Of a stretch of DNA of 64,000 nucleotides, positions 787 to 58,601 are shown piece by piece. Position numbers and translations under genes: made by a program. Location: the NCBI GenBank assembly GCA_038064415.1, contig JBBTTD010000003.1:2597-66596 (forward strand). The letters run 5' to 3'. The DNA is from Patescibacteria group bacterium (GTDB lineage Bacteria > Patescibacteriota > Minisyncoccia > Phycocordibacterales > PALSA-1337). Within the stretch, counting starts at the first letter, position 1; every line of letters starts with the position of its first letter. Below the pieces are notes generated by a model. That model was not told the DNA's origin. It did not search any database and worked only from the letters and a program-made list of their open reading frames with translations.

Positions 787-1845
787 ATGCCCGGAGCCAT
801 CCCAAGAACAACTCCTTTATGGATTCTCGCTCTTATAGTTATTCTTGTACTGACCTATGCAGATACCAAGGCGCACGCGGCGACAATAACCGCAACGGTC
901 AAAATAACCGTCTGCGGTGATGGGATTGTTGAAACTCCAGAACAATGCGATAGTTCTAATCTTAATGGAGCTTCCTGTACGACGCGGGGTTTCACCGGCG
1001 GTTCTATCTCCTGCACGAACGCATGCGAGTTTAATACCTCGTCTTGTACTTTGAGTTCCGGTTCTTCAGGATCTTCCGGAAGTAGTGGCGGAGGCGGTGG
1101 AGGCAACGGTATCACCCCTGTTTCAACAAGTGCCGTCTTTAGCGGCAGGGCATATCCAGGAAGTGTGGTAACACTCCTCAAAGACGCGCAAATCGCCGCG
1201 ACAACCATTGCTGGGACTGACGCGAAGTTCCAAATCAACATTTCAAATCTTTCAGGCGGTAATTATATTTTCAGTGTCTATTCGGAGGACAAAAAAGGTC
1301 TACGCTCATCCCTACTTACATTTCCAGTATCCGTAACATCCGGCGCGACGACAAATATCAGCGGCATTTTCATCGCGCCGACAATCGCGACCGACAAAAG
1401 CGAGGTGCGACGCGGAGACAACATTGCTATCTTTGGGCAAAGCATTCCGTCGTCCGAAATCACGGTCAGCATCAATTCAGAGGAAGAGTTTTTTGTCAAA
1501 AGAACAACCGATGCGGCTGGCGCGTATCTTTTGAATTTTGATACATCCGTGCTTGAGATTGGACAACATCAGACCAAATCAAAATCAGCTTTAAGCGGCG
1601 AGATTACCGCATTCGGTAAAACAGTCGGGTTCGTGGTCGGGAATAAAAATGTGCTTGCCGAGCTAACGAAAGTTACCGCTACAAAAGGCGATACCAATGG
1701 CGATAATCGAGTCAACCTTGTTGATTTCTCCGTCGCTGCCTACTGGTACAAACGACTAAATCCTCCCGCGTCGGCCGACCTCAATAGCGACGGGAAAGTC
1801 AATTTGGTTGATTTCAGCATTATGGCGTTTAACTGGACCGGCTAA
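787..1845 (+). CDS. Secreted multidomain protein: signal peptide, Cys-rich repeat (CGDGxVExxEQCD...), Gly/Ser linker, Ig-like modules, C-terminal type-I dockerin
   Basis: C-terminal duplicated Ca-binding segments GDTNGDNRVNLVDFS ... DLNSDGKVNLVDFS are the canonical dockerin repeat pattern; N-terminal signal peptide; CGDG..EQCD cysteine repeat; SSGSSGSSGGGGGG linker. Confidence 0.6.
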   Translation: MPGAIPRTTPLWILALIVILVLTYADTKAHAATITATVKITVCGDGIVETPEQCDSSNLNGASCTTRGFTGGSISCTNACEFNTSSCTLSSGSSGSSGSSGGGGGGNGITPVSTSAVFSGRAYPGSVVTLLKDAQIAATTIAGTDAKFQINISNLSGGNYIFSVYSEDKKGLRSSLLTFPVSVTSGATTNISGIFIAPTIATDKSEVRRGDNIAIFGQSIPSSEITVSINSEEEFFVKRTTDAAGAYLLNFDTSVLEIGQHQTKSKSALSGEITAFGKTVGFVVGNKNVLAELTKVTATKGDTNGDNRVNLVDFSVAAYWYKRLNPPASADLNSDGKVNLVDFSIMAFNWTG

Positions 1846-1851
1846 CATATT

Positions 1852-2619
1852 ATGAACATATTTCTAAAAATAATTGCTGTCGCGTTGTTAGCATTTCCCG
1901 TAGCTGTTTCGGCTATGACAGTTGTTGTTGAAGTTGACACTGGGGAGGAAAGCATCAATGCGCTTGAGGCAACATTAATGTTGCCTGCAAATGCGGATAT
2001 ACATAATATTCAGAACGGCAACTCGGCCTTGCTTATGTGGGTTACTCCGCCCACACAAACGGACAACACGATCATCTTCGCGGGCATCACGCCTGGCGGA
2101 TTTGCCGGTGTCTATCCGATATTCACCATAGACGGTGAATTCGCGGCACAAGATTTGGAACAGATGAGATTTGATTCGGTTACCGCCCTTAGAGACGATG
2201 GCTCTGGTACTCGCGTACCAGTCAAGACGAAAGTCTCACTCATTCAGTCAAAAGGTGACACGATTCCGCCAGAAGACTTTACCCCGGTTATTTCACGCAA
2301 TCCGAGTATTTTTGACGGAAAATATTTCTTGGTGTTTGCCACGCAAGATAAGGGCTCTGGTATAAAGCGCTATGAAGTGCGCGAAGGACGATTCAACTGG
2401 TTTAGAAAAGAGGAAAGTCCATATCTCCTCTCATATCAGCGTCTCAACAAGGACATCTATGTGCGTGCGATAGATAACGCAGGTAACAAAAGAATTACTG
2501 TCATTGAGGCGACGACGCGCAGATCATGGTGGGAGCGTTACGGATTATTTGTTATACTTATAATGTTAGTTCTCGGGCTACTTGTATATAAAAGACAATG
2601 GCTAAAATTTATGCAATAG
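1852..2619 (+). CDS. Secreted, C-terminally TM-anchored protein with possible cohesin-like beta-sandwich module
   Basis: Signal peptide; region VVVEVDTGEESINALEATLMLP...IIFAGITPGGFAG resembles the cohesin pattern seen in the next gene; C-terminal TM (LFVILIMLVLGLLVY). Confidence 0.35.
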   Translation: MNIFLKIIAVALLAFPVAVSAMTVVVEVDTGEESINALEATLMLPANADIHNIQNGNSALLMWVTPPTQTDNTIIFAGITPGGFAGVYPIFTIDGEFAAQDLEQMRFDSVTALRDDGSGTRVPVKTKVSLIQSKGDTIPPEDFTPVISRNPSIFDGKYFLVFATQDKGSGIKRYEVREGRFNWFRKEESPYLLSYQRLNKDIYVRAIDNAGNKRITVIEATTRRSWWERYGLFVILIMLVLGLLVYKRQWLKFMQ

Positions 2620-4319
2620 TTTTTTTTCTCATCGTGTTCGCGACTGCGCCTGTTTTTGCGCATGCGGCATCGCTTAATTTTTCTCCACCCTCTGGTTCTC
2701 ATACTGTTGGGAGTTCGTTCTCGGTGAGCGTTTACGTGGAGAGCGCTAGCCAGGCGATGAATGCCGCTTCCGGCATCGTATCGTTTCCATGGGACAAGCT
2801 TGAGGTCGTGTCGCTCTCCAAGCAGGGCTCTATCTTCTCGCTTTGGCCCACAGAGCCGTCATTTTCAAATAGCCAAGGCACGGTTTCATTTGAGGGCATC
2901 GCTCTTAATCCCGGATATACTGGCACGAACGGAAAGTTGCTCACTATCACTTTTCGGGCGCGGAGCGCGGGAATGGCGAATGTGAGTTTCTCTTCTGGCT
3001 CTATTTTGGCGAATGACGGCACCGGCACGAATATACTGAACGGCCTTCGCGTTGCGAGCTATACGCTCGGAAGCACGAGCGTGCCGACTCCCACATTGCC
3101 ACAAGATGAGCCGGTTTCAACAGGGAACACGCTCGGCATCACATCCACCACGCATCCTGACCAGAGTGCTTGGTACGCAAACAATACGCCGGAATTTTCG
3201 TGGAACCTGCCCGATGGTGTGCTTGAAGTGCGAACACTCATCGGTAAATCGTCATCAGCAACACCATCGGTTTCCCACAACCCGCCGATCTCAAAAAAGA
3301 AAGTTGATGAGCTTCCCGACGGCACTTATCATTTCTCACTCCAAACACGCACGGTTTCTGGCTGGAGCACGGTATCACGTTATCGTGTCAACATTGACAC
3401 GACGCCACCCAAGCCATTCACAATCGCTTTTCCGCACGGGAATACCGGATGGGAGCCGCAACCAGTCGTGTTCTTTAACACAACGGATGACGAGTCTGGA
3501 ATAAGCCACTATGAAATCAAGGTTGGAAACGATATGAGACCATTCAAATCCGCGCCGTTTGCCACATCAAACCCCTATGTACTGCCACCGCAGCTTCCAG
3601 GCACATATACGCTCCTCGTTATGGCGGTGGACAACGCGGGCAATGTACGCAACGGCTCCGCGGGATTTACGATTGAGTCGATTGACGCGCCGACCATAAC
3701 ATACTATCCGGAAATGCTGGAGGAAGGCGATATTCTGAAAGTGAGAGGCACGACATATCCTGATTCTGATGTGACGATGTACATCCGTGAAGGCGACACA
3801 CTAGTGTCGGAGGAATATACGCGGAGCAACACGCTTGGCGACTTCGCTGTTGTCGCGACGAAATGGCTTAAGAACGGAGTATATACAATTACCGCGCGTA
3901 TTAAAGACGCGCGAGGGGCACAGAGTGTGGAGACATCGCCACTTACAGTTTCAGTCCGTTCAGAATTTGTCACGGAAATGGTGAGCTTCGTCCTGAAGTA
4001 TCTCTCTGTCGCGCTTCTCGCGCTTCTCGCGTTCGGGGTACTCGTGTGGGTAGGTCTTCGCTTGTGGTTTAGGATTCCCCGCACGATAGCGCGTATGCGT
4101 CGCGAAGCGCGAGAAGCGGAGAAAGTGTCTGAAAAGGCACTCAATGTTCTACGCGAAGATGTCCTGCGCCATATTGCCCGACTCAAGAAAGCGAAAAGAA
4201 GACTCACAGTGGAAGAAACAGAATTTTTGGAGCAGTTTGGTCAGAAGCTTAAGGAGGCGGAAGATATTATCATAAAAGAAATTCAAGATATTTCTAACGA
4301 TAAGACTGTTGGTAAGTAG
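2598..4319 (+). CDS. Membrane-anchored cohesin-domain scaffold protein (signal peptide, cohesin module, Ig/FN3-like modules, TM, cytoplasmic coiled-coil tail)
   Basis: Residues ~25-150 (SLNFSPPSGSHTVGSSFSVSVYVESASQAMNAASGIVSFPWDKLEVVSLSKQGSIFSLWPTEPSFSNSQGTVSFEGIALNPGYTGTNGKLLTITFRARSAGMANVSF) fit the cohesin fold signature; TM helix near C-terminus followed by Lys/Glu/Arg-rich coiled-coil. Confidence 0.55.
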   Translation: MAKIYAIVFFLIVFATAPVFAHAASLNFSPPSGSHTVGSSFSVSVYVESASQAMNAASGIVSFPWDKLEVVSLSKQGSIFSLWPTEPSFSNSQGTVSFEGIALNPGYTGTNGKLLTITFRARSAGMANVSFSSGSILANDGTGTNILNGLRVASYTLGSTSVPTPTLPQDEPVSTGNTLGITSTTHPDQSAWYANNTPEFSWNLPDGVLEVRTLIGKSSSATPSVSHNPPISKKKVDELPDGTYHFSLQTRTVSGWSTVSRYRVNIDTTPPKPFTIAFPHGNTGWEPQPVVFFNTTDDESGISHYEIKVGNDMRPFKSAPFATSNPYVLPPQLPGTYTLLVMAVDNAGNVRNGSAGFTIESIDAPTITYYPEMLEEGDILKVRGTTYPDSDVTMYIREGDTLVSEEYTRSNTLGDFAVVATKWLKNGVYTITARIKDARGAQSVETSPLTVSVRSEFVTEMVSFVLKYLSVALLALLAFGVLVWVGLRLWFRIPRTIARMRREAREAEKVSEKALNVLREDVLRHIARLKKAKRRLTVEETEFLEQFGQKLKEAEDIIIKEIQDISNDKTVGK

Positions 4320-4349
4320 CCCTTCGCAACCTGACTACCACCCTGTTTT

Positions 4350-5954
4350 ATGTTGTGTTATAATACGAAGATGAAATATAAAATAAATACAATGTTTCCA
4401 TATTTTATTATTTTTCTCTTTATTTTCACTCTTACCATTCCAATCCAGAATGCATCCGCCGGTTCGCTTACTCCTTCCTCCGCGCCAGCGGCCAATGGCT
4501 ATACTCTTTCTGGTATATACAATCGTCTAATAACGAATACCTCTGCCGTTTCTGGCTCTCATTCTTTTGCGCCTACCACTACCCCGCAGTCAACTTTCCC
4601 GACCTTGATTGATATTTATAATGCTATTCCAACAATATATCCAACTGATTTTTTGGCTAGCTCCACATATCTTGGTATTACTGGTTCAATTACGGTTAAA
4701 ACCGGCGATACCGTCGTCGCCTCAAGTTCTGCCCAAGGTACTTCGCTCGTCCTGACTGTTCCTCAAGGGTATTACAGTGGCGGGTCGTCAGTCACCGTCT
4801 CAACATCATCCGCAAGTTTTGTAGCTGGTAGTATTAAAAGCGGAGTTACGATTTTTGGCATTATCGGCACTCTTATTGAATCATTGGGCAATGCCGTTGT
4901 CGCCGATGTTTTCTCCGGTAAAACATTCAGCAATACCACAGATTCAAATATTACCGGTACTTTAAATCTTGCTTGCAATACCGCTACTTTCAACGGCACG
5001 GCAAATCTCGTCGCTACCGCATACGATGGCGCCGGCGATGGCTCAAATCGTTGGTGTGTTACTGATACTGGTGACGCGGTGGCCGGCGATCTTTTGTCTG
5101 GCAAAAAATCTTGGGTAGATGGCGTGGAAATTACCGGTTCAGTATCCGCCGGCTCCAATGTTACTGGCAGTAACGGCACGCTTGCCATGACGATTCCCGA
5201 TGGTTTGTATTCTGGTTCAAAAACAGCTACAGCCAACGATACCAATCTTGTGACCGGCAACATCAAAAGCGGAATCACGCTTTTTGGCGTTGCGGGCAAT
5301 TCCAATGTGGTTGATACTACTTCTGGTACGGCGGTAGCTGGCGATCTGGCCAACAATAAAATCGCCTTTTCCGCGGGCTCGCAGATTACCGGCACTATGT
5401 TTACCAACATGAAAAATCAGACAAAAGATGATTATGTGAATGGCGCGGGAACTACTGGAGAATATACAAGCGAAGAATCTACATGGTCGGCTGTTTCCGG
5501 CTCACCGTTCTCCGGATACGACGCCATTAATTATCTTGGAGCGACGGACTTGTATAGCGGCGCGGTCAAACAAGACGGAAGGACTGGTCTTTGGTGGTCG
5601 GATGTTATGGCTGTTGGCGCGACTGCTTCAACCACCACTAATGTTTTTACACTTTCAGCCGACGGCTCAAGACCAACTGGCGGTTTGGCTATCGGTTTTT
5701 GTGATGCTCTAAATAGTGCTAGTTTTGCTGGTTATACTGACTGGTATTTACCGACCCAGAAACAGCTCATGCAAGCATATATAGACGGTGCGTCAAATAA
5801 TTTATTGAATGCAGGATCAAATTCTTATTGGACATCCACAGAGGATTATAGTACAACGAATAATGCTTGGCGATCAGGTTTTAAATTTTCCGGCACTATT
5901 ATATCAAATACAAAGGTTACTACTACTGGCACTGTGCATTGCGTTCGTCCTTAA
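4350..5954 (+). CDS. Secreted Thr/Ser/Gly-rich fibre-like surface protein with C-terminal DUF1566/Fib_succ_major-like module
   Basis: Signal peptide; repetitive T/S/G-rich beta-rich sequence; C-terminal motif GYTDWYLPTQKQLMQAY...YWTST typical of DUF1566/Fibrobacter paralogous domain. Confidence 0.45.
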   Translation: MLCYNTKMKYKINTMFPYFIIFLFIFTLTIPIQNASAGSLTPSSAPAANGYTLSGIYNRLITNTSAVSGSHSFAPTTTPQSTFPTLIDIYNAIPTIYPTDFLASSTYLGITGSITVKTGDTVVASSSAQGTSLVLTVPQGYYSGGSSVTVSTSSASFVAGSIKSGVTIFGIIGTLIESLGNAVVADVFSGKTFSNTTDSNITGTLNLACNTATFNGTANLVATAYDGAGDGSNRWCVTDTGDAVAGDLLSGKKSWVDGVEITGSVSAGSNVTGSNGTLAMTIPDGLYSGSKTATANDTNLVTGNIKSGITLFGVAGNSNVVDTTSGTAVAGDLANNKIAFSAGSQITGTMFTNMKNQTKDDYVNGAGTTGEYTSEESTWSAVSGSPFSGYDAINYLGATDLYSGAVKQDGRTGLWWSDVMAVGATASTTTNVFTLSADGSRPTGGLAIGFCDALNSASFAGYTDWYLPTQKQLMQAYIDGASNNLLNAGSNSYWTSTEDYSTTNNAWRSGFKFSGTIISNTKVTTTGTVHCVRP

Positions 5955-5967
5955 GTGAGCGGATCTT

Positions 5968-7860
5968 ATGCAAAATATGTTCACAAAAAAATTTATTTCA
6001 GTAATATTGAATTTTGCGTGTATATCTGTATATCTTTTTTTGCTTGTTATTTTTAGCGCCAATTTTGTATATGCCTCAAGTACCGACGGTACCATAGACT
6101 CAACCAACCGCTACGCTTATATGGAAGCGGGAAGTTGGGTAGACTTGGGTAGCACGCAAGGCAATGTCCATGTTACCGATTCAGCGCTTTCGGGCTACGC
6201 GTGGAGTTCAGAATTTGGTTGGATTTCCTTGAATTGTTCAAATACCAGTTCATGTTCAAGTGGTGTTGATTATAAAGTCGCCAATGACAATGAAGGCGTC
6301 TTGTCTGGTTATTCATGGAGTGAGACGGCGGGTTGGATAGATTGGAAACCCACTAATGGCGGGGTAACGATTAATTCCTCCGGGATTTTCTCTGGAAGAG
6401 CGTGGGGAGATCAAGTTGGTTGGATCACTTTCAATTGTTCGGCGGATAGTTCTTGCGGGTCGGTTGATTATACAATTACGACTGATTGGCGACCATTGTC
6501 ATCTCGGTCCGTGGCCAGTCCGGTTACTGATTCAAGCACAGGATCCAATAGCAGTAGCGGCAGTAGGATGTTTTTACCGACGATTATTTCCATCCCAACG
6601 GAGATAGTTTCCAACATAATTGATGCTATTATTCCAGAATTTCTGAAGCCCAAAAAAGAACCAATCGTCAAAATTACCGATGAGATTCAGGTGTCAGATG
6701 TAACTCCGCTGGCTTTTAACGGAAAATGGAGACTATTGCCGATTCAGACTATAGGAGATTTCGTGTTCGCGCCTTTGCCACGGAGCATTCGTGCTTTGGC
6801 GGTAAAGTTTCCAAGTTTTGGTAAAACATTAAGTGAAGTTGGCGTTGTCCGTCTTTCTGATTTGGATAAATTGCGAAGCGCGACATTATCTTTGCCTGGA
6901 CTTACTGAAAGATCCGGTATTTCCGGAGCTTCATTGCGCACCGGTATATTCGCGTCTATGGCGGGAGTACCACTCGCAAAACTCTCTCCCTCTTTCAAAA
7001 AATCTTTACCTTCTGAAACGGTTTTTGCCAGGACGGCGGACGAGCTCATAGATCTGAATACTTCTATTCTGGTGAGCGATACTGGAGATGTCAATCAGAA
7101 AATCAATACTGAATCTAGGCAAACAATACGCCTAGCCATCAAACCGGAAAGTCCAGTGACATCCATCAAAGGATATTTGACTTTCCGAAAGAGGAATGCT
7201 TTGAGCAAAGAAGACGAATATTCAAATGACATGCTGGCTTCCGTCATATCCGCTTTGCCGGTGCTTGGGAAAAAATCAGACGCGCCGATAGAAGACAAAT
7301 TGGTTTTACTTTCATTTGATTACGGCGATTCTGACAAAGACGGTATCTGGACGGCGGATATAAATTCGCCGGTTGTGGCGGGAGAGTATGAGATTATGAC
7401 TATTATCGCTTATGTTGATCCCGAACTTGGTATGCGCCAAGTTAGACTTGTTACGGTGGTCGATCCGGAGGGATATGTTTATGAGAAGAACGGCTCAAAA
7501 GAGACTCGTATTCCAGATGCCGAGGTGTCTATATATGAGCTTAATAGCGATAGCGGTCAATATGAAATGTGGTCGGCCAGTACTTATCATCAAGAAAATC
7601 CTCAAACTACGGGCCTAAGTGGCACATATTCTTTCTTGGTACCACCGGGGACATATCGTATATTTGCCGTTGCTCCGGGTTATTCTCCATATGATGGCCA
7701 GCCATTTGAAGTTCAGATTGGAGGGGGAGTGCATAAGAACATTGAACTTATTCCAGAACATGGATGGATCAAAGCCCTGGATTGGAAGATTTTATTGATT
7801 ATCATAGTAGTGTTATTATTAGCTTACAATTTTTATCGCGATTATCGACGCGATAAGTAA
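5968..7860 (+). CDS. TM-anchored protein with N-terminal tandem 'GYAWSxxxGWIxF'-type repeats and C-terminal carboxypeptidase-regulatory-like (CarbopepD_reg) domain and terminal TM helix
   Basis: Repeats LSGYAWSSEFGWISLNCS / LSGYSWSETAGWIDWKPT / FSGRAWGDQVGWITFNCS; C-terminal SGTYSFLVPPGTYRIFAVAPGYSPYDGQPFEV; paralog of 44599..45459. Confidence 0.5.
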   Translation: MQNMFTKKFISVILNFACISVYLFLLVIFSANFVYASSTDGTIDSTNRYAYMEAGSWVDLGSTQGNVHVTDSALSGYAWSSEFGWISLNCSNTSSCSSGVDYKVANDNEGVLSGYSWSETAGWIDWKPTNGGVTINSSGIFSGRAWGDQVGWITFNCSADSSCGSVDYTITTDWRPLSSRSVASPVTDSSTGSNSSSGSRMFLPTIISIPTEIVSNIIDAIIPEFLKPKKEPIVKITDEIQVSDVTPLAFNGKWRLLPIQTIGDFVFAPLPRSIRALAVKFPSFGKTLSEVGVVRLSDLDKLRSATLSLPGLTERSGISGASLRTGIFASMAGVPLAKLSPSFKKSLPSETVFARTADELIDLNTSILVSDTGDVNQKINTESRQTIRLAIKPESPVTSIKGYLTFRKRNALSKEDEYSNDMLASVISALPVLGKKSDAPIEDKLVLLSFDYGDSDKDGIWTADINSPVVAGEYEIMTIIAYVDPELGMRQVRLVTVVDPEGYVYEKNGSKETRIPDAEVSIYELNSDSGQYEMWSASTYHQENPQTTGLSGTYSFLVPPGTYRIFAVAPGYSPYDGQPFEVQIGGGVHKNIELIPEHGWIKALDWKILLIIIVVLLLAYNFYRDYRRDK

Positions 7861-35693: not shown

Positions 35694-36476
35694 ATGAATC
35701 CATGGATACAATTAAGCATTGATTACGCAAATCAAAAGAATTATCTCGATGATCTTTTTCAAGTGTACCCAACTATTCCTGATGGGATTAGAGATATTGA
35801 TACAACATTATGGAAAAAAACTGAAAAAGCGTTCAAGGATCGTAAAAATGACGAACTTGTAGAGAGTCTATTGCAACTTGATCTTTTTCCGATAAAAGAT
35901 TCATACGTTGCTTATCTTAAGAGAGATAAGAAAGCAATGCAAAGAAATCCAGCAACAATTTCTCGCTTAGCAGGTCGTTTATATGGAATGGGATTGACTA
36001 GACTTTTTGAGCGTTGCTCCGAACCAAAAGAGACGAATCGTCAGATTGGCCCATTATTCCGTCGCTGGTTAAATAGAAAATCATTAGGCGTTGAGTCTTT
36101 AAAAGTAGAGCAATTTTTAGCCACGAAAGACAATGCAATTCTTGATGCTGGTGATATTGAAATGATGGGTTTTGCAAGAGAATATCTTAATTACAAACAT
36201 GGTAAAGGGCTAGATCTAGTTGCTAGATTTAATAATAAGTATGTTATTGCAGAAGCAAAATTTCTTACTGATTTTGGTGGACATCAAAATGCTCAGTTTA
36301 ATGACGCTATATCTACAATAAAAGCAAAGAATGTAAACGCTATTAAAGTCGCTATCTTAGATGGTGTTCTTTATATAAAAGGTAATAACAAAATGTATCG
36401 AGATATTACTACAACCCTGAAAAAAGAAAATATTATGAGTAGCCTTGTTCTTCGTGAATTTCTTTATCAAATATAA
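35694..36476 (+). CDS. Candidate Type II restriction endonuclease (PD-(D/E)XK) of an R-M pair
   Basis: GLDLVARFNNKYVIAEAKF = D...ExK catalytic motif; 5 bp upstream of a DNA methyltransferase; very AT-rich. Confidence 0.45.
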   Translation: MNPWIQLSIDYANQKNYLDDLFQVYPTIPDGIRDIDTTLWKKTEKAFKDRKNDELVESLLQLDLFPIKDSYVAYLKRDKKAMQRNPATISRLAGRLYGMGLTRLFERCSEPKETNRQIGPLFRRWLNRKSLGVESLKVEQFLATKDNAILDAGDIEMMGFAREYLNYKHGKGLDLVARFNNKYVIAEAKFLTDFGGHQNAQFNDAISTIKAKNVNAIKVAILDGVLYIKGNNKMYRDITTTLKKENIMSSLVLREFLYQI

Positions 36477-36481
36477 TTTAT

Positions 36482-46564: not shown

Positions 46565-47866
46565 ATGCCATATTTTCACTTATTTTCGGCCTTTACTAGC
46601 CATTTAGAGACTATTGTCGCTCAAGGTGGTTATATATTTCTATTCCTTACGACCATGCTTGAGGGCATACCACTTATAGGGATGGCTATACCAGGGCATG
46701 TAGCCATTATTATCGCGGGTTTTTTAGCTAAAATAGGCTTACTTGATTTGTGGCTAGTTCTTTTATTAGGTGTTGTGGGCGCGATGATTGGTGACTATAT
46801 CGGTTTTTATCTTGGCAGAAAATATGGATTGTCATTTATTGATCGTTTACGACCTTATTTTTTTATTACTGATCAGCATATTGAAAAAGCTAGCAATCTT
46901 CTAGCCAGACATACTGGCAAAGCCCTGATCATTGGTAGATTTAGTCCGGTAACACGACCATTGATGCCTTTTTTGGTCGGTGCCAGCAAGACATCGGAAA
47001 AGAGATTTTGGGTCTTTAATACTATTGGTGGAGCTAGTTGGGCGATTTTATCTGTCTTTATCGGATATATTTTTGGTGCTGGATATCATATTGCCGCTGG
47101 ATATCTTGGTAAATTCGCAATGTTTGCGATCGTTGTTTCAATCATCATTATCTGGGGTTATCATTTTGTAAATGTCAGATTTCACATCTTCAGGCGCTAT
47201 GAGCTGTTTATGCTGATATTAAACCTGTTTTCAATTTATGGTTTAGCCAGAACAATTCAAGATGCTCGTTTTACCATGATCAATCCGATTTGTTCCAGCA
47301 AAATTTGTACATTTGATGTTTATCTAAATCAATTTTTTGATGGAATTGACCGTATTCATCCATTTATTGTCACAATAAGTGAGTGGGTTACAAATATTGG
47401 TGGAACGGCCGTCATGACTGTTTTAGGGGTTTTGTTAATATTTTGGTTTTTGTTTCGCAAAAGATGGCGTTCCGCGGTAGTCACATTCATCTCTATTGGA
47501 TCTACAGGACTATTTCTTGGTTTGATGAAAGCATTCTTCATGCGCGCGCGTCCAGATAACGCTTTGATCTTGATTACAAACGATCCGAGTTTTCCTAGCG
47601 GTCATGCCGCCATGGTAGCAGCATTACTTGTGGTTGTGGCATATCTTTTTGCTCCGAAAATTAAATCACGATTTAAGCGTGAATTTATGATTGTGTTGTG
47701 TGTTCTTGCGATTATCGCGGTTGGTCTTTCAAGAGTTGTCTTGAATGTCCACTGGGCATCTGATGTTGTCGCTGGCTGGTCGTTGGGAATATTCTTTGCG
47801 ACGGCGTCGGTTTTACTTGTTAGGTATGTTGGAGTTTTGGTTGTCGGAAAAACAGATCGGAAATAA
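46565..47866 (+). CDS. Fusion protein: N-terminal DedA/SNARE-associated membrane domain + C-terminal PAP2 (type 2 phosphatidic acid / undecaprenyl-diphosphate phosphatase) domain
   Basis: DedA motifs GHVAIIIAGFLAK...GDYIGFYLGRKYG; PAP2 motifs KAFFMRARP, PSGHAAMVAAL, SRVVLNVHWASDVVAGWSLG. Confidence 0.65.
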   Translation: MPYFHLFSAFTSHLETIVAQGGYIFLFLTTMLEGIPLIGMAIPGHVAIIIAGFLAKIGLLDLWLVLLLGVVGAMIGDYIGFYLGRKYGLSFIDRLRPYFFITDQHIEKASNLLARHTGKALIIGRFSPVTRPLMPFLVGASKTSEKRFWVFNTIGGASWAILSVFIGYIFGAGYHIAAGYLGKFAMFAIVVSIIIIWGYHFVNVRFHIFRRYELFMLILNLFSIYGLARTIQDARFTMINPICSSKICTFDVYLNQFFDGIDRIHPFIVTISEWVTNIGGTAVMTVLGVLLIFWFLFRKRWRSAVVTFISIGSTGLFLGLMKAFFMRARPDNALILITNDPSFPSGHAAMVAALLVVVAYLFAPKIKSRFKREFMIVLCVLAIIAVGLSRVVLNVHWASDVVAGWSLGIFFATASVLLVRYVGVLVVGKTDRK

Positions 47867-56243: not shown

Positions 56244-57848
56244 TTAATTCTTTTCAACTGTCCTCACCGCTTCAATCCTGTCTCCGACCGCGACTTCAAA
56301 TTTGGCGTCCAATAGCATTCCAAATTCATAACTTTCACGAATTTCGTCAACGCTTTTCTTTTGTTGTTGGAGTCCGCGGATTTTACCACGGCCAATCTCC
56401 GCTTCACGACGCGTGATTCGGACTTCATTTCCGCTACTTATTGTTCCAGTCTCTACTTTTCCGCCAATTACTTGCTTATCTTTTTCTTTTGAGAATATCG
56501 CCAAAATCTTCGCGCGGCCGGTCATTTCTTCAATATATTCTTTTGGGACTTTCGCCAAGAGAGCATCTTTGACATATTGGGTTAGTTCGTAAATGATTTT
56601 GAAATTTTTCACCAAGAGTTTGACGGCTGATCGCTCAATCATGGTCGCGGTATCTTTTTCTGGTTCAGAATTGAAGCCGATTAAAAGAATACTTGGATCG
56701 CCAATAACGGTTTTGATGTCATTTTCATTGATGCTCCCGATGCCTTCGGAGACGATTTTTATCTTGACTTTATCGTGAGTAATTTTGGCTAACTCATGCT
56801 TGATGCCATCCAAACTCCCGATGACATCGGCTTTGATAATAATTGGTAATGTGACGATTGTTGGTTCACTGTCAGCTTCTGTTTCGGCGTCTTTGGAATT
56901 CTGTGTTGTTGAATTGTTTATTGTTTCTTTGGATTTTACATCTTTACTGATTAGTTTCTTTGCTTCTCTCGTTTTCAATTCCTGATTCTTGGTTTTTGAT
57001 TCCTCCGCAATTTTTTCCGCCTCTTTTTTGTTTTTGACGGTCTTAAATTCAACGCCGCAGGCCGGCATATTATTCCAGCCGAGAATTCTGATTGGCATTG
57101 AAGCCGTGGCTTTCTCAATTTTTTCACCTTTAAAATTCTCAATAAAACGGACGGGCGCGAAAGCTTCACCCGCGACGACGAATGAACTCAATTCTAATGA
57201 ACCGTTTCTTAATAACAAAGTGGCTGAGACTCCTTTACGAGTGTCAAGAGTTGATTCAATAACAAATCCATTTGCCGATAATGAGAGGTCAGCTTTGAGA
57301 TCGGCTAATTCAGCCACAAGCATGACCATGTCAAGCAGTTCAGGGACGCCTTTTCCACTGACGGCGGATACTTCAACGCAAGGCACATCACCTCCCCAGC
57401 CCTCAATATAAATCTCATTTTCACCTAAACTTTGTTTGGCTCGTTCGGAATTGGCATTTGGTTTATCTATTTTTGTAATGGCGACTATATAGGGAATATG
57501 GGCGCTTTTGATAATTTTATAGGCCTCAATAGTTTGTGGTTTGACACCATCTTCAGCGGAGACGGCTAGAATTGCCACATCAGCCGCTTGGGCGCCACGT
57601 TCGCGAATATCACAAAATGCTTCATGGCCGGGAGTATCAAGGAATGTGATAGTCGTTTTCTTTTTTTCAGCGGAAATATGATCAACTTGATACGCGCCCA
57701 TGTGCTGGGTAATACCACCAGCCTCGCTGTCAACGATCTTGGTTTTACGGATAAAATCAAGCAGTGTGGATTTGCCATGGTCAATATGGCCCATGATCAC
57801 AACCACGGGAGGACGAACAATCAGATTGTGCTGATTTTTGTTGGGCAT
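56244..57848 (-). CDS. infB: Translation initiation factor IF-2 (short form lacking N-terminal extension)
   Basis: G-domain [25 protein letters not shown], domain II and C-terminal beta-barrels; Lys/Glu-rich low-complexity insert mid-protein. Confidence 0.85.
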
Positions 57849-57911
57849 AATGGTAAAAAGATATTGTATCAGAAATTGACATATTATGCTAATATTGTTA
57901 CATATTCCGCT

Positions 57912-58601
57912 ATGAAGCCCTATTTCCTCATCCCTTTATTTTTTCAAAAGCTTGTTTGGGTACCTGTTCGTCTGACATTCTATCTTTTTATCAGAATGAA
58001 AGTGGAGGGTTTAGAAAATCTACACGGTCTTGATCGTAGAGTGATTTTCGCGGCCAATCATCCATGCGAGCTTGATCCGGCGTTTATTCCGGCGGCAATA
58101 CCTTTTTGGTCACGGTTTTCTCCGATTTTTGGTGCTTCAAGAGAGAAATCATACTACGCAAAACTTGGTTGGCGGCGTCATTTTTATGGACGATGGTTTT
58201 TTGTGATGTGGGGTGGTTCTCCGGTTTATGCTGGACTGCACAACTATGAACAATCCGTGAGAAATCATATTAGATTGATTCAAGATCGAGCGACTTTGGT
58301 AATCTTTCCTGAAGGAGGTATCAGTCGAGATGGATTGATTCATCCAGCGAAGGGCGGGATTGCTTTTTTGGCAGAACGCGTAAATTGTCCAATTATACCA
58401 ATTGGTATTTCTGGCGCGGTCGGCTTGAATTTCAAAGATTTTTTTCTGCGTCGTCGTAAAGTTGTTGTCAGATTTGGGTCAGTCATAACTCAACAAGAGA
58501 TTAAGGATAATGTCCCTAGGCCAGCCAATTTTAGTCCGTCCATATATAGAGTGGAGGCGGACTATGTGATGAGGAAGGTGGGGGAGTTGATTGGGGGGTG
58601 A
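57912..58601 (+). CDS. plsC: 1-acyl-sn-glycerol-3-phosphate acyltransferase family (PlsC-like)
   Basis: HX4D motif AANHPCELD, FPEGGISRDG motif; start set to MKPYFLIP (ORF-track start 57588 overlaps infB). Confidence 0.7.
   Translation: MKPYFLIPLFFQKLVWVPVRLTFYLFIRMKVEGLENLHGLDRRVIFAANHPCELDPAFIPAAIPFWSRFSPIFGASREKSYYAKLGWRRHFYGRWFFVMWGGSPVYAGLHNYEQSVRNHIRLIQDRATLVIFPEGGISRDGLIHPAKGGIAFLAERVNCPIIPIGISGAVGLNFKDFFLRRRKVVVRFGSVITQQEIKDNVPRPANFSPSIYRVEADYVMRKVGELIGG

Follow-up and report, generated by a model that had tools for sequence, protein, structure and literature searches.

A single gene that joins a DedA domain directly to a six-helix PAP2 phosphatase is present in a 64,000-nucleotide (nt) stretch of DNA from a Patescibacteria group bacterium (GenBank assembly GCA_038064415.1, contig JBBTTD010000003.1), which is referred to as the window throughout. 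The open reading frame (ORF) at 46565..47866 on the forward strand begins with ATG and continues for 433 codons plus a stop without any internal stop codon, and the identical protein is listed by NCBI (P0001) under the name "bifunctional DedA family/phosphatase PAP2 family protein". The product is best read as a bifunctional membrane protein that recycles the polyprenyl-phosphate lipid carrier, although only at slightly better than even odds (roughly 0.55). An initial annotation, made from the sequence alone, had already described the ORF as a single-chain fusion and regarded it as a 'Rosetta stone' linking DedA flippases to undecaprenyl-pyrophosphate phosphatases. The uninterrupted 433-residue frame and both domains bear out the fusion itself; the Rosetta stone reasoning is valid and compatible with the topology of the protein, but the link is not new, having been published by Roney & Rudner, Sit et al. 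and Todor et al.

A single chain with two conserved domains

Both of the domains that the initial annotation had proposed are recognized by Pfam above their gathering scores. VTT_dom (PF09335) occupies residues 42-168 (E 8e-19, 68.7 bits against a cutoff of 33.9, positions 1-122 of the 123-position model), and PAP2 (PF01569) occupies residues 308-421 (E 1.3e-21, 77.1 bits against a cutoff of 27.2). The sequence motifs named in that annotation were all located as well, and are included among the features of the gene, in which invariance refers to an alignment of 36 Patescibacteria fusions used to follow conservation among relatives from the Candidate Phyla Radiation (CPR):

46565..47866 (+): DedA-PAP2 fusion gene, complete, 433 amino acids (aa) plus stop
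46565..47182 (+): DedA half, residues 1-206, placed by Pfam VTT_dom (nt 46688-47068), NCBIfam, the helices of an AlphaFold2 model and the distribution of lysine and arginine (K/R)
46661..46699 (+): tip of hairpin 1, E33 ... P36 ... P43-G44-H45, where E33 = E39 and H45 = D51 in alignment with E. coli YqjA
46790..46828 (+): GDYIGFYLGRKYG motif, residues 76-88, which includes D77; G76, D77, G80, G84 and G88 invariant
46937..46957 (+): tip of hairpin 2, R125 ... R131, aligned with YqjA R130/R136 and probably equivalent to UptA R112/R118; presumed phosphate-binding arginines
47039-47041 (+): W159, probably equivalent to UptA W146; kept in 109/112 diverse fusions
47153..47215 (+): domain junction, residues 197-217, WGYHFVNVRFHIFRRYELFML (also written WGYHFVNVRFHIFRRYELF); basic, cytoplasmic, with no linker helix
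47183..47863 (+): PAP2 half, residues 207-433, six transmembrane (TM) helices and an outward-facing active site, placed by Pfam (nt 47486-47827), phmmer, Foldseek and K/R loops
47528..47554 (+): PAP2 motif C1, KxxxxxxRP, K322-P330 (KAFFMRARP, 322-330); K322, R329 and P330 invariant
47594..47605 (+): PAP2 motif C2, PSGH, P344-H347; P344, S345 and H347 invariant
47729..47764 (+): PAP2 motif C3, SRxxxxxHxxxD, S389-D400, here SRVVLNVHWASD, with H396 as nucleophile; R390, H396 and D400 invariant

The same architecture is found in a large number of other proteins. Both Pfam domains are present in 120/120 of the best homologues (52-66% identity, 97-100% coverage), and many homologues bear the NCBI name given above. 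When 1.84 billion cluster representatives (50%-identity clusters) were searched exhaustively with HMMER, 202 matches were obtained at E <= 1e-30; among the best 150 of these, 109 are collinear full-length fusions, with identity falling as low as 28%. The window protein has the DedA domain at its N-terminus, carries both domains in one polypeptide and is collinear with the named members, and is thus a member of the fusion family. As 120 homologues possess both domains and 109 cluster representatives are collinear, the single-chain architecture is real and conserved, with no artefact of sequencing or gene calling involved. Neighbouring but unfused dedA-pap2 pairs do exist in Paenibacillus and Azospirillum, and a frameshift, a faulty assembly or an overlooked stop codon could in principle turn such a pair into one ORF, but here such an artefact is close to inconceivable: the reading frame runs through unbroken, 10 contigs drawn from a Logan run and from independent 0.1-µm metagenome assemblies of Hainich groundwater encode the identical protein, the collinear fusion clusters number more than 100, and the junction is the second most conserved stretch in the protein. 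The frameshift, stop or pair of overlapping genes that the initial annotation had named as fatal to its proposal is therefore ruled out.

The PAP2 half is the better defined structurally. Its Pfam score and all three catalytic motifs place it in the PAP2 superfamily, motif C3 being the most conserved 15-residue stretch of the whole protein. B. subtilis PgpB/YodM (PDB 5jki) is matched by phmmer over residues 266-411 (E 1.7e-16). The AlphaFold2 model, which was built from a 36-sequence alignment (mean predicted local distance difference test score, pLDDT, 81; predicted template modelling score, pTM, 0.64), superposes on the same structure in Foldseek with a template modelling score of 0.79 normalised to the target, over 213 columns that cover the entire 201-residue target. 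As this superposition spans the whole 5jki chain, residues about 207–433 constitute a complete six-helix PAP2 domain, and the placement of its catalytic loops opposite the K/R-rich loops is that of an integral-membrane PAP2 protein. For SepP, the best NCBIfam match of this half, a literature search on a role as undecaprenyl-diphosphatase gave nothing relevant.

The DedA half is predicted, based on the modelled helices and the K/R distribution, to proceed from an N-terminal helix through re-entrant hairpin 1, a TM helix, cytoplasmic amphipathic helices, re-entrant hairpin 2 and two TM helices to a cytoplasmic end. Its top NCBIfam matches are DedA PRK10847 (68.6 bits, residues 12-194), followed by two models of UptA, the transporter of undecaprenyl phosphate (UndP, or C55-P), at 57.5 and 45.2 bits (residues 13-202); no PetA-type model in NCBIfam matched this half. 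A phmmer search of the PDB with the N-terminal half gave no DedA structure at E <= 10, and Foldseek matched PAP2 proteins only.

Residues E33, P36, P43, H45, D77, R125, R131 and W159 are invariant in the DedA half across the 36 Patescibacteria fusions, and among diverse fusions R125 is retained in 105/112, R131 in 110/112 and D77 in 109/112. Direct alignment with E. coli YqjA pairs E39 with E33, D51 with H45, R130 with R125 and R136 with R131; E39, R130 and R136 are essential residues in YqjA/YghB. In B. subtilis UptA, mutation of E32, R112, R118 or W146 lowers C55-P binding, and Q64 is hydrogen-bonded to R112. The UptA residues E32, Q64, R112, R118 and W146 likely correspond to E33, D77, R125, R131 and W159 in the window protein, a mapping that depends on a constant offset of +13 for Q64, R112, R118 and W146 and on a different offset for E32. 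Position 77 is almost invariably Asp in the fusions, where UptA has Q64 and YqjA has Cys.

The manner in which the halves are joined is itself conserved, with a mean column identity of 0.85 at the junction compared to 0.70 for the DedA core and 0.73 for the PAP2 core. The junction motif is clade-specific; it is common to close relatives and to two relatives binned as archaeal (L071 and L076, described below), while proteobacterial fusions have other or longer linkers. K/R-rich segments (85–147, 203–212, 298–302, 364–373 and the C-terminal tail, 429-433) fall on one side of the membrane and the PAP2 catalytic loops on the other. PAP2 active sites have been reviewed as facing outward, and the C-terminus of YqjA is cytoplasmic in all topology predictions. 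With the end of the DedA domain and the start of the PAP2 domain both in the cytoplasm, head-to-tail joining is possible without an extra helix. The two sets of functional residues, the E/R/R/W quartet of the DedA half and the catalytic set of the PAP2 half, are each retained in about 94–98% of the 109 diverse fusion representatives, and since both sets are intact in 90/111 diverse fusions, both halves are under purifying selection.

Proposed lipid carrier recycling and its alternatives

In the proposed mechanism, the outward-facing PAP2 domain would convert undecaprenyl pyrophosphate (UndPP, or C55-PP), released after peptidoglycan polymerisation, into UndP. The head group phosphate would then be bound by R125/R131 at the tip of hairpin 2 of the COG0586-like DedA domain, with E33 and W159 in support, and the DedA domain would return UndP to the cytoplasmic leaflet. 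The two domains would act as directly joined units, held by the conserved basic junction, and the gene would be transcribed alone from an extended -10 promoter of its own. Architecture, residue conservation, PAP2 fold, topological compatibility and phylogenetic breadth are directly supported; the lipids acted on (C55-PP/C55-P), the direction in which they are moved and any transfer from one domain to the other are what we infer, and coupling of dephosphorylation and flipping in one chain is putative.

Several observations favor carrier recycling. The best NCBIfam matches of the two halves are UptA and, at 45.4 bits, the UndPP phosphatase SepP; the E/R/R/W quartet and the PAP2 residues are in place; the topology is compatible; and dedA and pap2 genes have been reported adjacent or fused in the published work, with the unfused pairs of Paenibacillus and Azospirillum as further cases of adjacency. 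Peptidoglycan genes are also present in the window (MurJ, VanY, an LD-carboxypeptidase, a peptidoglycan-binding protein and DivIC), a gene content which indicates that the organism makes peptidoglycan and therefore needs a lipid II cycle.

A number of points weigh against this reading. The UptA scores are far under the equivalog cutoffs of 250 (NF052604) and 300 (NF052605) bits, and the same is seen for the PAP2 half with SepP (NF047884, cutoff 250), YbjG-type phosphatase (PRK11837, 19.9 against 229) and PgpB (PRK10699, 30.1 against 261); because of these low scores, substrate specificity is left unassigned from sequence. The nearest solved PAP2 structure, BsPgpB, is primarily a phosphatidylglycerophosphate (PGP) phosphatase. 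How the two domains pack against each other is uncertain, given the pTM of 0.64 and the pLDDT of 57-69 across residues 170-210, where the model is least confident. The definition of COG0586 given by Todor et al. comprises two acidic residues in hairpin 1 and two arginines in hairpin 2; both arginines are present in the window protein, as is E33, but the equivalent of Asp51, an essential and putatively proton-binding residue in YqjA/YghB, is His45. This His (window 46697-46699) is invariant in the clade of 36 CPR fusions, and the 109 diverse fusion representatives have Q 45 times, E 19 times, H 16 times and another residue (G/A/S/T/N etc.) 32 times, so that Glu occupies the site in only about 17% of fusions, with Val in a PA4011-like protein. 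Lastly, the only genetically tested member of the family, P. aeruginosa PA4011, did not rescue a mutant of PA4029, an UndP flippase, and its deletion did not aggravate the phenotype; it was judged likely uninvolved in C55-P flip-back, with 'membrane lipid remodeling' suggested instead. The rarely acidic Asp51 position may bear on the failure of PA4011 to behave as a classical UndP flippase.

The alternative that survives best is a phospholipid-remodelling module, in which PAP2 would dephosphorylate PGP, phosphatidic acid, lyso-phosphatidic acid or another phospholipid on the outer leaflet and DedA would act as a scramblase or flippase for the glycerophospholipid that is consumed or produced. 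PetA-like and YqjA-like DedA proteins have been proposed to move glycerophospholipids, UptA and YqjA bind anionic phospholipids too, and such an activity could benefit a lipid-scavenging CPR cell; the relation to BsPgpB, the judgement on PA4011, the non-acidic Asp51 position and the missed UndPP phosphatase cutoffs all lean the same way. Set against these are the ranking of UptA and SepP, rather than any PetA-type model, as best NCBIfam matches, the conservation of the quartet that binds UndP, the ability of both BsPgpB and E. coli PgpB to hydrolyse C55-PP as well, and the assignment of PAP2 fusions by Todor et al. to COG0586, the UndP subfamily. Phospholipid remodelling is regarded as unlikely.

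A more elaborate proposal, regarded as rather doubtful, would treat the fusion of Paceibacteria-type CPR bacteria and their DPANN-binned relatives as a distinct variant, with the proton-binding Asp51 of classical UndP flippases replaced and lipid movement driven or gated by the phosphatase rather than by proton-motive force alone. The conserved junction would lock the domains together for direct hand-over of C55-P or for outward delivery of C55-PP, and the protein might be the sole carrier-recycling machinery of these reduced genomes and might be co-regulated with the YruB-type glutaredoxin encoded beside it.

Also unlikely, and speculative, is a reversed order of events, in which the DedA domain would move newly made UndPP, or another polyprenyl pyrophosphate, outward to the PAP2 site, with UndP returned by something else. 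The flippase that carries de novo UndPP to the outer leaflet is, according to a review, unidentified, and outward movement would explain why PA4011 does not replace PA4029 and would fit the divergence of the Asp51 position in the fusions. However, UptA has a preference for C55-P over C55-PP, the residues with which it binds are kept in the window protein, and direct evidence for UndPP transport is lacking for every DedA protein. Recycling of the lipid carrier, with dephosphorylation preceding the return of UndP, is kept as the favored function.

Promoter, gene neighbourhood and distribution

An extended -10 promoter element lies directly upstream of the fusion gene, and the neighbouring features on this side are as follows:

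38288–40018: MurJ, upstream neighbour
46058–46131: tRNA-Gly
46183..46419 (-): YruB-type glutaredoxin-like gene, 78 aa, with CVYC (Pfam Glutaredoxin E 7.5e-19; TIGR02196 86.8 bits against a cutoff of 88.55)
46548..46556 (+): extended -10 promoter element TGTTATAAT, separated from the ATG by 8 nt; Shine-Dalgarno sequence absent

A TGnTATAAT/TGnTATACT box is present in 59 related loci, mostly ending 7-10 nt before the ATG and most often at 8 nt (18 loci); none of the 59 has a GGAG/GAGG/AGGA core within -16..-4. The fusion therefore probably has a dedicated promoter and an mRNA that is leaderless or nearly so across Paceibacteria-like genomes, as judged from the sequence upstream of these genes. 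A generic promoter scan gave nothing above shuffled expectation; the -10 box emerged only from the cross-locus comparison. An upstream regulatory RNA was also considered and rejected, as the only Rfam matches in the window at gathering scores are RNase P RNA and three tRNAs.

The window is typical of a small Patescibacteria genome, and no second DedA, PAP2, UppP or DUF368 gene was found within it. The order of genes is MurJ, LepA, two surface-protein genes, DivIC, tRNA-Gly, the glutaredoxin-like gene on the reverse strand, the fusion, and then convergent genes for cofactor-independent phosphoglycerate mutase (iPGM) and DnaE. Membership in a lipid II operon was rejected, as MurJ is 6.5 kb upstream, LepA, the two surface-protein genes, DivIC, tRNA-Gly and the divergent glutaredoxin lie between, and the fusion has its own promoter. 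A divergent glutaredoxin gene is found 42-168 nt (median 104) upstream of the fusion in 55/78 related loci, and the pairing persists where the MurJ-LepA-DivIC and iPGM synteny has been lost, making it the most persistent neighbour of the fusion. The GC content is about 0.40 for the window and 0.38 for the locus, within a range of 0.34-0.50 across the window; recent horizontal transfer into the genome is not suggested by either base composition or conserved synteny.

Elsewhere in the window, a Tsp45I-type type II restriction endonuclease (Pfam E 9e-119) adjoins an N6/N4 DNA methylase at 35694-37651. Together they form a complete restriction-modification system, which lies just upstream of the gene for RNase P RNA (37721-38061). 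Large secreted or surface proteins are clustered at 787-7860 and 41919-45459 and contain cohesin, dockerin, Big_6/Big_13, Lcl_C and CarboxypepD_reg domains, and one protein of these clusters (891 aa) ends in a Peptidase_S74 (endosialidase-chaperone) domain; an episymbiotic CPR cell may use such proteins for attachment or host interaction. The ORFs for IF-2 (534 aa, 56244-57848, reverse strand) and a PlsC-like acyltransferase (337 aa, TTG start, 57588-58601, forward strand) overlap by about 260 nt, and as the Pfam domain of the acyltransferase begins at residue 136, its true start is probably further downstream.

In terms of distribution, a pattern scan of GTDB species representatives gave 135 loci with relatives of the fusion, 80 of which, essentially full-length, were kept; nearly all are from Paceibacterota, Parcubacteria, Taylorbacteria or unclassified Patescibacteria. 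Fusions of the same name were also found by tblastn in plasmid records of Rhizobium, Mesorhizobium, Massilia, Pseudomonas, Agrobacterium, Azospirillum, Roseibium and Burkholderia, at about 25% identity, with matches covering 75-94% of the query. As to the comparison of CPR with other bacteria that the initial annotation had called for, the fusion is widespread in groundwater Patescibacteria but is not specific to CPR, as the same architecture occurs in proteobacteria.

Two further full-length fusions are on contigs binned as DPANN, namely L071 (5962-7263, BDTJ01000018.1, 'Archaeon BMS3Abin17') and L076 (5962-7242, JACRKG010000040.1, 'Candidatus Woesearchaeota archaeon'). Their proteins are 38-41% identical to the window protein and have the same junction motif, and the contigs are 48 kb and 69 kb in length. 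The flanking genes encode a tandem AsnC-type helix-turn-helix regulator, an NYN protein, a Na+/H+ exchanger, an S-adenosylhomocysteine hydrolase and a LAGLIDADG protein, none of which is diagnostic of domain. Based on these sequences, the two loci could represent transfer between CPR and DPANN organisms or contigs that have been mis-binned.

Another relative, P0119 (684 aa, from JGI), has a complete 2,3-bisphosphoglycerate-dependent phosphoglycerate mutase (GpmA/His_Phos_1) domain fused after the PAP2 C-terminus. The downstream neighbour of the fusion in the window and in 24/80 loci is iPGM, which is unrelated to GpmA. The GpmA domain of P0119 could be a coincidence, a read-through or a real triple fusion.

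Relation to known DedA and PAP2 proteins

Both the fusion and the argument drawn from it are already known, through the standard name in NCBI's annotation pipeline (PGAP), at least three papers and a partial test in Pseudomonas. Roney & Rudner (2022/23, bioRxiv) described dedA and pap2 as adjacent in some genomes and fused in others, with ~1.3% of dedA genes fused, and argued that the products of genes so placed or joined would carry out successive reactions of the lipid II cycle. Sit et al. (2022/23) likewise took DedA–PAP2 fusion and adjacency as evidence for UndP flipping by DedA, and PAP2 fusions were placed within COG0586 by Todor et al. (2023). The fusion is legitimate genomic evidence that DedA proteins and UndPP phosphatases belong to one pathway, and it has already been used as such in the UndP-flippase papers.

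The present instance adds only that groundwater Patescibacteria, which make peptidoglycan with very small genomes, carry this architecture widely and in well-conserved form. It could also serve as a compact experimental handle, as a single 433-aa protein can be used for asking whether dephosphorylation and flipping are physically coupled; this question is sharper because PA4011 did not act as a flippase and because most fusions deviate at the Asp51 position. Beyond this, the locus contributes small points: a His45 that is invariant in the clade, a well-conserved junction, a promoter with a probably leaderless mRNA, the glutaredoxin neighbour, a candidate DedA–PAP2–GpmA triple fusion and the two archaeal-binned relatives.

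In comparing the window protein to the published DedA-PAP2 fusions, the domain order is the same, as are the length range (410-440 aa) and the E/R/R/W and K-RP/SGH/R-H-D residues. It represents a Patescibacteria (Paceibacteria-like) branch that is about 25% identical to the proteobacterial members and is set apart by its clade-specific direct junction motif and by His at the position of YqjA D51, with no difference in kind. PA4011 (437 aa) resembles it in architecture and size, and the hairpin 2 arginines and PAP2 motifs are kept in the PA4011-like locus L083; however, PA4011 shares only 27% identity with the window protein, carries Val at the D51 position and differs at the junction. UptA (YngC) and YqjA/YghB share the fold elements of the VTT/DedA domain, and their E32/E39, R112/R130, R118/R136 and W146 are conserved here, but they are stand-alone proteins of about 200-220 aa, with Asp51 in place of His45 and with Q64 (UptA) or Cys (YqjA) in place of Asp77. 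The closest counterparts of the second half are BsPgpB/YodM (5jki), together with BcrC, YbjG, E. coli PgpB and SepP, which have the same six-TM PAP2 fold, the same outward C1/C2/C3 motifs and about 24% identity; in contrast to these stand-alone phosphatases, the PAP2 domain of the window protein is fused to DedA.

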